Source: Promethearchaeota archaeon (GTDB taxonomy: Archaea; Asgardarchaeota; Lokiarchaeia; Sigyniarchaeales; SOKP01). Taken from it: a stretch of DNA of 12,059 nt. Below, in pieces: positions 9,067-12,059 of this stretch. The position numbers were made by a program, and so were the translations under genes. Numbering within the stretch: position 1 is the first letter of the stretch; each line of letters starts with the position of its first letter. The notes below the pieces were generated by a model. It made no database searches and was not told where the DNA came from. It worked only from the letters and a program-made list of their open reading frames with translations. The stretch is taken from the NCBI GenBank assembly GCA_008080735.1, contig SHMW01000105.1, positions 1-12,059 of the forward strand. The letters run 5' to 3'.

Positions 9067-9170
9067 GGGAGGGTAGTCTAGCTTGGTATGATTCTCGGCT
9101 GGGGGCTGAGTGTTCCAATCAAGAAGATTGGTCCAAGTACAGGTCGCGGGTTCGAATCCCGTCTCTCCCA
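9067..9170 (+). tRNA. tRNA-Pro (GGG) with a 30-nt insertion (about 9111-9140) in the variable region
   Basis: Acceptor stem GGGAGGG/CTCTCCC with discriminator A; D arm GTCTAGCTTGGTATGAT; anticodon arm CTCGG-CTGGGGG-CTGAG (GGG at 9101-9103); T arm GCGGG-TTCGAAT-CCCGT. CCA is not encoded and a T-rich tract follows. Confidence 0.93.
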
Positions 9171-10232: not shown

Positions 10233-11060
10233 ATGGAATTCACGATAAACTCAAAAATAGAACTTAATAATGGTCTTGAAATGCCGAGATTTGGGCTTGG
10301 AACATGGAAATTAAAGAGAGAATCAGTGGTAAACCCAGTAAAATGGGCATTAAACATGGGATATCGCTTAATTGATACAGCGACTTTTTACAGAAATGAA
10401 AAGTATATTGCCAAAGCTATAAAAGAGAGCGGGCTTTCAAGAGATGAGTTATTCATAACCTCAAAAGTGTGGGACACAGATCAAGGGTATGACAATACTT
10501 TAAGTGCATTTGAAAACAGTCTTAGAAAATTAGATACAGAGTATTTGGATTTATATTTGATCCATTGGCCAAGAAAGAGAAGGAATGAGACATGGAAAGC
10601 GCTTGAAAAATTGTATTCAGATGGAAAAGTAAAAGCGATCGGAGTGGCGAATTTTGCCATCCAACATCTTGAGGAAATAATAGACACACATGATATTATA
10701 CCTGCAGTAAACCAATTTGAACTTCACCCATTTGATTATTCTGATGAGCAAGATTTAATCGATTATTGCAGAAATAATGATATAAAGGTAGAAGCTTATA
10801 GTCCCTTAACCCATGGGAGAAAATTAAACCATCCAACATTGAAGAAAATAGGAGAAAAATATGATAAATCCGCTGCTCAAGTCTTAATTCGCTGGAGTCT
10901 CCAACAAAATTTTATTTGCATACCCAAATCCGGGAGTGAAAGTCATATCAAAGAAAATGCAAATGTGTTTGATTTCAAATTATCAAGTGAAGATATGGAA
11001 GAAATAAATACTATTAAAGCAAATTTTAGATTATTAGATGATACGAGTAAATGGAACTAA
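10233..11060 (+). CDS. Aldo/keto reductase (2,5-DKG reductase / AKR5-like)
   Basis: GLGTW, GYRLIDTATFY, ITSKVW, DLYLIHWP (D-Y-K-H tetrad), AIGVAN, AYSPL, IPKS. GAGGTG ribosome-binding site upstream. Confidence 0.95.
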   Translation: MEFTINSKIELNNGLEMPRFGLGTWKLKRESVVNPVKWALNMGYRLIDTATFYRNEKYIAKAIKESGLSRDELFITSKVWDTDQGYDNTLSAFENSLRKLDTEYLDLYLIHWPRKRRNETWKALEKLYSDGKVKAIGVANFAIQHLEEIIDTHDIIPAVNQFELHPFDYSDEQDLIDYCRNNDIKVEAYSPLTHGRKLNHPTLKKIGEKYDKSAAQVLIRWSLQQNFICIPKSGSESHIKENANVFDFKLSSEDMEEINTIKANFRLLDDTSKWN

Positions 11061-11072
11061 ATCTTCGAAAAG

Positions 11073-11906
11073 GTGAATAGTGAACTCATGAATTTGAATA
11101 TTGAATCGACCTATAAGCTTAATAATGGACTTGAAATACCTATTTTAGGTTTCGGTACATGGGATTTAAGAGGTAAAACAGCGCTTAATGCAACAATTTG
11201 GGCATTAGAATCGGGGTATCGTTTAATAGATACTGCCTCTTTTTATAACAACGAGGTTGAAGTGGGAGAGGCGATCATCGCAAACGGGATATCTCGAGAG
11301 GATATCTTCATTACCACGAAAGTCTGGGAGACTGAAATGGGGTACCAAAATACGATAAATGCGTTTGAAAGGAGTCTCAATCGATTGAATGTGGATTATA
11401 TCGATCTGTATCTTATTCATTGGCCCCGGGCAAAACGCTTGGAAACCTGGCACGCAATGGAAACGCTGTATGAAGAAGGGAGGGTAAAAGCAATTGGAGT
11501 TAGTAACTTTAAAATTAGTCATTTAGACCAGATATTAAATAATTCAGAAATTATACCAACAGTAAATCAGATAGAATTTTCTCCCTTTCTTTTTCAAAAA
11601 GAACTCTTAGAACATTGCCGAGATCATAACATTAAAATAGAAGCATATGCCCCACTCACGAGAACAAATAAATTTAATAATCCCGTTATTGGAGAGATGA
11701 GCCAGAAGTACGAAAAAAGTCCTGCTCAAATATTAATCCGATGGGGGCTTCAACATCACTTAGTAGAGATCCCACGATCCAGCAGTAAAAGGCATATAAA
11801 AGAAAACGCGGACATTTTTGATTTTGAAATTGATATTAACGATATGGAAAAGCTTGATGGTCTTGATGAGGGGTTCCGAGCCGTCGAGGATCCCATATTC
11901 GATTAA
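11073..11906 (+). CDS. Aldo/keto reductase (2,5-DKG reductase / AKR5-like), tandem paralog
   Basis: GFGTW, GYRLIDTASFY, ITTKVW, DLYLIHWP, AIGVSNF, IPRS. AGGTGA at 11071-11076 suggests the real start is ATG 11088. Confidence 0.95.
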   Translation: MNSELMNLNIESTYKLNNGLEIPILGFGTWDLRGKTALNATIWALESGYRLIDTASFYNNEVEVGEAIIANGISREDIFITTKVWETEMGYQNTINAFERSLNRLNVDYIDLYLIHWPRAKRLETWHAMETLYEEGRVKAIGVSNFKISHLDQILNNSEIIPTVNQIEFSPFLFQKELLEHCRDHNIKIEAYAPLTRTNKFNNPVIGEMSQKYEKSPAQILIRWGLQHHLVEIPRSSSKRHIKENADIFDFEIDINDMEKLDGLDEGFRAVEDPIFD

Positions 11907-11969
11907 GCTTATTTTTTTGCAAGATAAAAATTTTTTGAATTTCTCTAGTTTATCATTTGAATGATGAGA

Positions 11970-12059
11970 GTGAACTACATATCCCCTCAAGGGGGTGGCT
12001 TCAACCATTCGGCTAGGCCTTTGCGACGCTAACTTCATTCGGTTGTTCGGGGCATTCAC
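11970..12059 (-). mobile_element. Right end / omegaRNA scaffold of an IS200/IS605- or IS607-family (TnpB-type) element, cut by the window edge
   Basis: Abrupt GC-rich segment. Minus strand ends GAAGCCAC-CCCC-TTGA-GGGG-ATATGTAGTTCAC, the typical GAAGCC...hairpin...GTAGTTCAC right-end pattern. It translates to a TnpB-tail-like EATPLRGYVVH. Confidence 0.8.

Follow-up and report, generated by a model that had tools for sequence, protein, structure and literature searches.

The probable right end of a decaying tnpB-only IS200/IS605-family element, with an overlapping omegaRNA scaffold, at a contig edge in a Promethearchaeota genome

Described TnpB systems and the locus at the contig edge

All characterised TnpB elements encode their guide at one location, the right end of the element (PMC10097598, PMC10278001). 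The omegaRNA of ISDra2 has a scaffold of 116 nt, in which a tetraloop occupies positions -20 to -17 and nucleotides -5 to -3 pair with nucleotides -103 to -105 (PMC10097598). TnpB has already been documented in Asgard archaea (PMC10691335), including the groups Cas1H-Asgard-1 and Cas1H-Asgard-2, whose loci contain an Asgard Cas1 and in which a conserved GTTCAC-containing motif, GTTCACTCA, lies downstream of a variable (hypervariable) stretch that follows tnpB (Altae-Tran et al. 2023, PMC10691335).

We analysed a stretch of 12,059 nt (the window) that constitutes the whole of contig C105 in a 4.1-Mb, 140-contig MAG of a Promethearchaeota archaeon. Position 12059 is the end of this contig and lies inside a repeat. 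The window contains the tail of a tnpB gene, the last part of an omegaRNA scaffold that overlaps this tail, and a TTCAC terminus at 11970. We put at roughly 88% the probability that an IS200/IS605-family, tnpB-only (IS1341-like) element of Promethearchaeota has its right end at 12059-11970 on the minus strand, where the contig end cuts it off, with a copy that is most likely non-autonomous or decaying and a guide that would be the neighbouring DNA.

The element resembles ISDra2 in several respects. Its tetraloop is at -21 to -18, and AUUCAC at -6 to -1 is predicted to be able to pair with GUGAAU at -90 to -85. As in ISDra2, the scaffold shares sequence with the 3' end of tnpB and extends to the right end of the element, so that the guide would be the flank, and the protein combines a RuvC D-E-D set with a zinc finger. 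However, the alignment of the cognate TnpB (P0001, described below) with ISDra2 TnpB reaches only E = 4.6e-11, the host is an Asgard archaeon, the element lacks a tnpA, and TTTAT is the likely TAM where ISDra2 has TTGAT. The published Cas1H-Asgard groups are likewise Asgard TnpBs with a conserved GTTCAC-containing motif bordering a variable stretch downstream of tnpB, but their motif follows the variable stretch, whereas here GTTCAC precedes the variable flank. Cas1 linkage of the kind found in those groups was considered and rejected, since the sole Cas1 of the genome is on contig C17 and adjoins no copy of the element. The terminus in the window reads ...GTAGTTCAC and ends at 11970; in several copies it is followed by TC, and we set it beside the published aCas1-linked motif GTTCACTCA (PMC10691335).

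The boundary of the element is defined by its repeat copies. The 90 nt at 11970-12059 (minus strand), representing the 3' part of the transposon right end and a scaffold fragment whose 5' side is cut by the contig end, recur at 94-97% identity on four other contigs of the same genome (C73, C52, C61 and C39), giving five copies when C105 is included. These matches end at, or no more than 6 bases from, the equivalent of position 11970. A DNA search of 60 related genomes recovered the same element in six genomes including the source genome, most copies being in the same genus. In an alignment of 27 copies from six Promethearchaeota genomes, similarity is even through ...GTA(A/G)TTCAC and falls to zero beyond it, the TTCAC end corresponding to window position 11970. 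Similarity stops in all 27 copies after GUUCAC (11970-11975, minus strand), which is the right-end terminus and would also be the 3' strand of a putative pseudoknot. The original prediction had anticipated a boundary at TTCAC among copies and had pointed to a drop in GC content just past 11970. Both were confirmed: the flanks beyond TTCAC are unrelated, and GC content is 0.53 within 11970-12059 vs 0.22 in the adjoining 63 nt (11907-11969) and 0.336 genome-wide. The base directly after TTCAC is T in 19 of the 27 copies, in a genome of about one-third T, and this excess may reflect a target preference for T following the TAM.

The transposon end is located 64 nt past the stop codon of an aldo/keto reductase gene, and the two are convergent in orientation. 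This gene belongs to a tandem pair of aldo/keto reductase paralogues on the plus strand (10233-11060 and 11073-11906; PF00248 at 8.5e-58 and 6e-54). Elsewhere in the window, an Rfam tRNA match at 9067-9170 (plus strand, 41.8 bits) is interrupted by about 31 inserted nt behind the anticodon arm; ARAGORN found no tRNA in the window, and the match is probably an intron-bearing archaeal tRNA.

By its position, the flanking DNA at 11950-11969 (minus strand), 5'-UCUCAUCAUUCAAAUGAUAA, would be the guide, of which the first 16 nt would be used if the system is ISDra2-like. The guide had been placed at 11969-11950 in the original prediction, and as far as position goes this reading was correct. The sequence occurs only once in the genome, where the closest 16-mers have 2 mismatches; neither an exact match in viral contigs nor a second genomic site within 2 mismatches and with relevant context was found. 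A guide that has no other target is what is expected if it is merely flank, since in the TnpB model the guide targets the empty donor site of the element itself. We also considered whether the flank TCATCATTCAAATG might be a degenerate left end, given its resemblance to the sequence with which the left end starts, TTATCATTGAAAATG. It is not followed by a hairpin, and contig C12 has a similar 16-mer within ordinary sequence; the resemblance was put down to chance.

Structure and conservation of the scaffold RNA

The minimum-free-energy fold of the 90-nt RNA consists of a closing helix between GUGAAU and GUUCAC, a stem of CAACCG/UGGUUG that encloses GUUAG/CUAGC and GUC/GGC, and a hairpin of CCCC-UUGA-GGGG. 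In the minus-strand DNA, CAACCG/TGGTTG pairs 12045-12040 with 12007-12002, and GTTAG/CTAGC pairs 12033-12029 with 12016-12012. The nested stems, the CCCC-TTGA-GGGG hairpin and the GTGAAT/GTTCAC pairing, all of which had been read from the DNA beforehand, lie exactly where they were described, and the computed fold gives the same nesting. The energy of the fold is no lower than expected by chance (z = -1.08; 32 of 200 shuffles were equally stable). The region is considered non-random because it is a repeat with a shared boundary, to which covariation adds.

The unexceptional folding energy is what might be expected if the stems were a chance structure, or if the sequence belonged to another class of non-coding RNA. 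Yet Rfam searches at gathering and permissive thresholds gave no credible family, either for the window edge (in 11700-12059 nothing reached the gathering threshold, the best score being 16.3 bits vs a threshold of 90) or for the full-length element of the congeneric MAG G002, so that no Rfam class offers a better match than the one proposed. In addition, the repeat, its boundary and the adjoining tnpB tail fully account for the sequence, and we regard the chance of such an origin as next to negligible.

An alignment of 25 complete right ends (A1) was used to derive a consensus fold and from it a covariance model, R1, which matches the window right end at model positions 59-128 with 58.3 bits. 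In this framework GUGAAU (12054-12059, minus strand), the putative 5' strand of the pseudoknot, pairs with the terminal GUUCAC in the minimum-free-energy fold. It is followed by CCCC (12049-12052, minus strand), which in the consensus fold of the 25 complete copies is the 3' strand of stem P2, with its GGGG partner beyond the contig end. Stem P3 (12002-12045, minus strand), comprising CAACCG/UGGUUG around GUUAG/CUAGC and GUC/GGC, is present in both the consensus and the minimum-free-energy folds and includes the tnpB stop codon. The terminal hairpin P4 (11983-11994, minus strand; CCCC-UUGA-GGGG) is defined by the 27-copy alignment and by covariation, and is the subterminal hairpin of the right end and the counterpart of omegaRNA stem 4. 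In the window copy P4 is weakened by G>A and T>A changes in its 3' strand (GGGGATATG vs GGGGGTTTG), and pair-breaking changes in P4 occur in three of the five right ends of the genome, this one included.

Compensatory changes support the last two stems, P3 and P4. When 39 sequences were aligned to R1, 91.6% of cells were paired and 23 of 33 pairs had changed on both sides, values that none of 500 shuffles reached and that slid controls fell far below; this alignment was fitted to R1 itself, and its support for P1 and P2 derives from four distant sequences that the model itself had aligned. Among the 34 close copies only, compensatory changes were found in 10 pairs, belonging to P4 (6 of its 8 pairs) and P3 (4 pairs), while P1 and P2 showed wobble changes and no compensatory ones. 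The GUGAAU/AUUCAC pairing showed, across 35 copies, mainly wobble changes (G-U/U-G), few mismatches and no compensatory change, a pattern compatible with a pseudoknot.

The same data bear on whether the right end acts purely as DNA, that is, as a hairpin and cleavage site for a Y1 transposase, the other stems being incidental and no guide RNA being made. Covariation is best supported in P4, the hairpin that TnpA would be expected to bind and that resembles the hairpin of the left end, and both P1 and P2 are without compensation within the family. However, P3 lies outside the subterminal hairpin and has compensatory pairs as well, and identity among eight full copies is 0.81-0.88 over the last ~150 nt vs about 0.76 in the body of tnpB. 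Five independent deletion derivatives (see below) have moreover retained at least about 136 nt of the right end, and the layout is like that of the solved ISDra2 omegaRNA, the guide being encoded there in every characterised TnpB element (PMC10097598, PMC10278001). A role confined to the DNA level is on balance quite unlikely, and we retain the reading of an omegaRNA scaffold.

R1 also gave weaker matches exactly 3' of other tnpB genes (C91:16335-16469 and C104:12060-12176, both on the minus strand, and C1:104421-104537 on the plus strand) and one orphan match (C85:14350-14491, plus strand). The C91 gene, the only one of these compared, has 30-33% protein identity. In all four right ends, GUAGUUCA(A/C) comes directly after a covarying UUUA/UUAA hairpin, from which it appears that one type of right-end terminus is common to several IS families of the genome.

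The tnpB gene, the left end and the probable target motif

The window carries the last 14 codons of tnpB (ECPEQPNEVSVAKA) together with a TAG stop codon at 12015-12013 (12013-12057 in all, minus strand), and the same tail is found in C52, in C73 and in the intact TnpB P0001 (...ECPEQPNEVSVAKT*). A frame encoding EATPLRGYVVH had drawn attention at first for running past the element end. It is indeed open to 11760, but the coding frame of the element is that of ECPEQPNEVSVAKA; the EATPLRG frame differs from it, has no Pfam match and was rejected as spurious.

We found the rest of the 3' end of tnpB in the other copies. On C52, C61, C73 and C39, the DNA directly 5' of the 90 nt encodes ...CHRCG...CSRCGLTYDRDVNAAINIAQR...ECPEQ..VSVAKA*, corresponding to the TnpB zinc finger and the third RuvC motif; the 3' ends of the sister-copy genes read CHRCG...CSRCG...DRDVNAAINIA, with the CxxC..CxxC and DRDxNA motifs present. 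An uninterrupted cognate TnpB of 398 aa, P0001, is encoded with this right end at G002:C101 in a MAG of the same genus (G002, Promethearchaeota archaeon TEKIR_8). P0001 matches PF07282 at 3.9e-23 as well as solved TnpB and Cas12f chains, and in the best alignment, which is to a Cas12f, the motifs IGIDRGE, ALEDL, DRDLNAS and two CxxC motifs are in register. The protein has the RuvC D-E-D residues and the CxxC zinc finger. The proposed association of this scaffold with tnpB is thus borne out by the sister copies and by the congener alike.

Other genomes of the group hold mostly damaged versions of the gene. In the sister genomes G001, G003 and G020, most full-length tnpB copies have nonsense codons or frameshifts at differing positions. 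The full-length gene is open only at G002:C101; the copy at G001:C23 is also free of stop codons, but its match ends at residue 392. In the source assembly, a tblastn search with the intact TnpB matched residues 1-52 and 328-398 only, and nothing encoding residues 53-327 was found, although contigs down to 240 nt had been kept.

Upstream of tnpB, the left end reads TTTAT(C/T)ATTGAAAATGCGAGAAAACTC, followed by a palindrome, a TTTTAAAT box and the ATG. The palindrome, ATCCCTTAAGGGAT, shows covariation among species and is similar to hairpin P4 of the right end. The two ends are asymmetric, with a subterminal hairpin at the left and at the right and no inverted terminal repeats. The motif TTTAT(C/T)A stands before every left end, nine in the source genome and 10 in relatives. 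Since the flanks are unrelated apart from this motif, the target motif, or TAM, is likely to be all or part of TTTAT. Six other genomes of the genus were searched for an empty site with the right-hand flank, and only the coding part of the reductase aligned (65-69%), without a junction; we therefore infer both the TAM and the exact left boundary, where the motif borders the element.

The full element of G002 consists of the left-end hairpin, a TATA-like box, tnpB and the right end. It has no transposase gene and is IS1341-like on this account, resembling the tnpB-only IS200/IS605 elements of the IS1341 group in layout, an assignment made by architecture alone. The source genome has a single Y1 transposase gene, at C36:69-437, which is coupled to a different tnpB (N-terminus MINRAIKIHLYPNQEQ). 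This tnpA-tnpB element was considered as the missing upstream part of the window copy and rejected, because the N-terminus of its tnpB is unrelated.

Decay of the family, and what the locus may mean

Several copies in the source genome are deletion derivatives. Two of them, C52 (about 305 bp) and C39 (about 255 bp), are complete mini-elements. In these, a GAT microhomology marks the junction of the left end with the final tnpB codons (~70 in C52, ~55 in C39), which the right end follows. C73 has kept both gene ends only, and C62 has kept the left end and an N-terminal stub. Gene-less derivatives of IS200/IS605 elements are already documented. The two mini-elements resemble PATEs, the gene-less IS200/IS605 mini-elements, but differ in retaining the whole guide-RNA scaffold and not hairpins alone. 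Five independent deletion derivatives were resolved (C52/C39, C73, G1_C403 and G20_C158).

This IS family is also found at the ends of contigs, and so accounts for several breaks in the assembly. Left ends lie at the end of C97, the end of C74 and the start of C50, and right ends at the end of C73, the start of C61 and the end of C105. The ends of C97 and C73 overlap by 49 nt, and at the contig ends of C74 and C50 the assembly breaks off after a left end and the first part of the 5' UTR. C105 itself ends about 78 nt upstream of the last private SNP of the window copy. Its break is uninformative on what follows, because k-mer assembly is expected to stop at such a position on running into a repeat.

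Just past the contig end there might be a complete and intact tnpB, perhaps with a functional promoter, in which case the locus would be an active RNA-guided nuclease with the guide as read. The uninformative break, the contig ends of C74 and C50 and the intact gene of the congener would all accommodate such a gene. However, residues 53-327 are encoded nowhere in an assembly that kept contigs down to 240 nt, all four copies that can be read further upstream are internal-deletion derivatives, the copies of the sister genomes are mostly pseudogenes, and P4 of the window copy is weakened. Taken together, these observations make an intact gene at this locus unlikely.

The tnpB fragments, the deletion derivatives, the weakened P4 and the pseudogenes of the sister genomes instead suggest that the TnpB family of the source genome is decaying, and that the window copy has more probably become a relic than remained part of a working RNA-guided system. 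The original prediction of an Asgard RNA-guided system stands as regards a TnpB right end with its scaffold and guide position; as for activity, a relic is the likelier state of the locus, given that no intact cognate tnpB was found in the assembly and that P4 is weakened.

If the element works according to the ISDra2 paradigm, a transcript spanning it would be trimmed to a scaffold of ~100-136 nt with ~16-20 nt of flank (UCUCAUCAUUCAAAUG...). By the same analogy, TnpB loaded with the trimmed RNA would cut the rejoined empty site, consisting of the TAM (probably TTTAT) and the flank, and the element would then be restored by recombination.

The gene-less copies might also have been kept because they are functional, as stand-alone guide-RNA cassettes that are read by a TnpB encoded elsewhere and form a dispersed guide set for the cell or for the transposon family. 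This is hinted at by the retention of at least about 136 nt of scaffold in each of the five deletion derivatives and by the higher conservation of the scaffold than of the gene. We consider it very unlikely; if true, such cassettes would be intermediate between the omegaRNAs of transposons and guide arrays like those of CRISPR.

In conclusion, our reading of the locus as the right end of a decaying, tnpB-only element leaves knowledge of TnpB biology unchanged. It does show that repeats of this kind fragment assemblies of Asgard MAGs. Potentially, the family may be of use for annotation and possibly as a source of a candidate compact nuclease. Overall, the element adds one further TnpB/omegaRNA family to those documented in Asgard archaea; its right-end boundary is defined, TTTAT is its probable TAM, its scaffold has been modelled, and a congener carries one intact gene for the nuclease.
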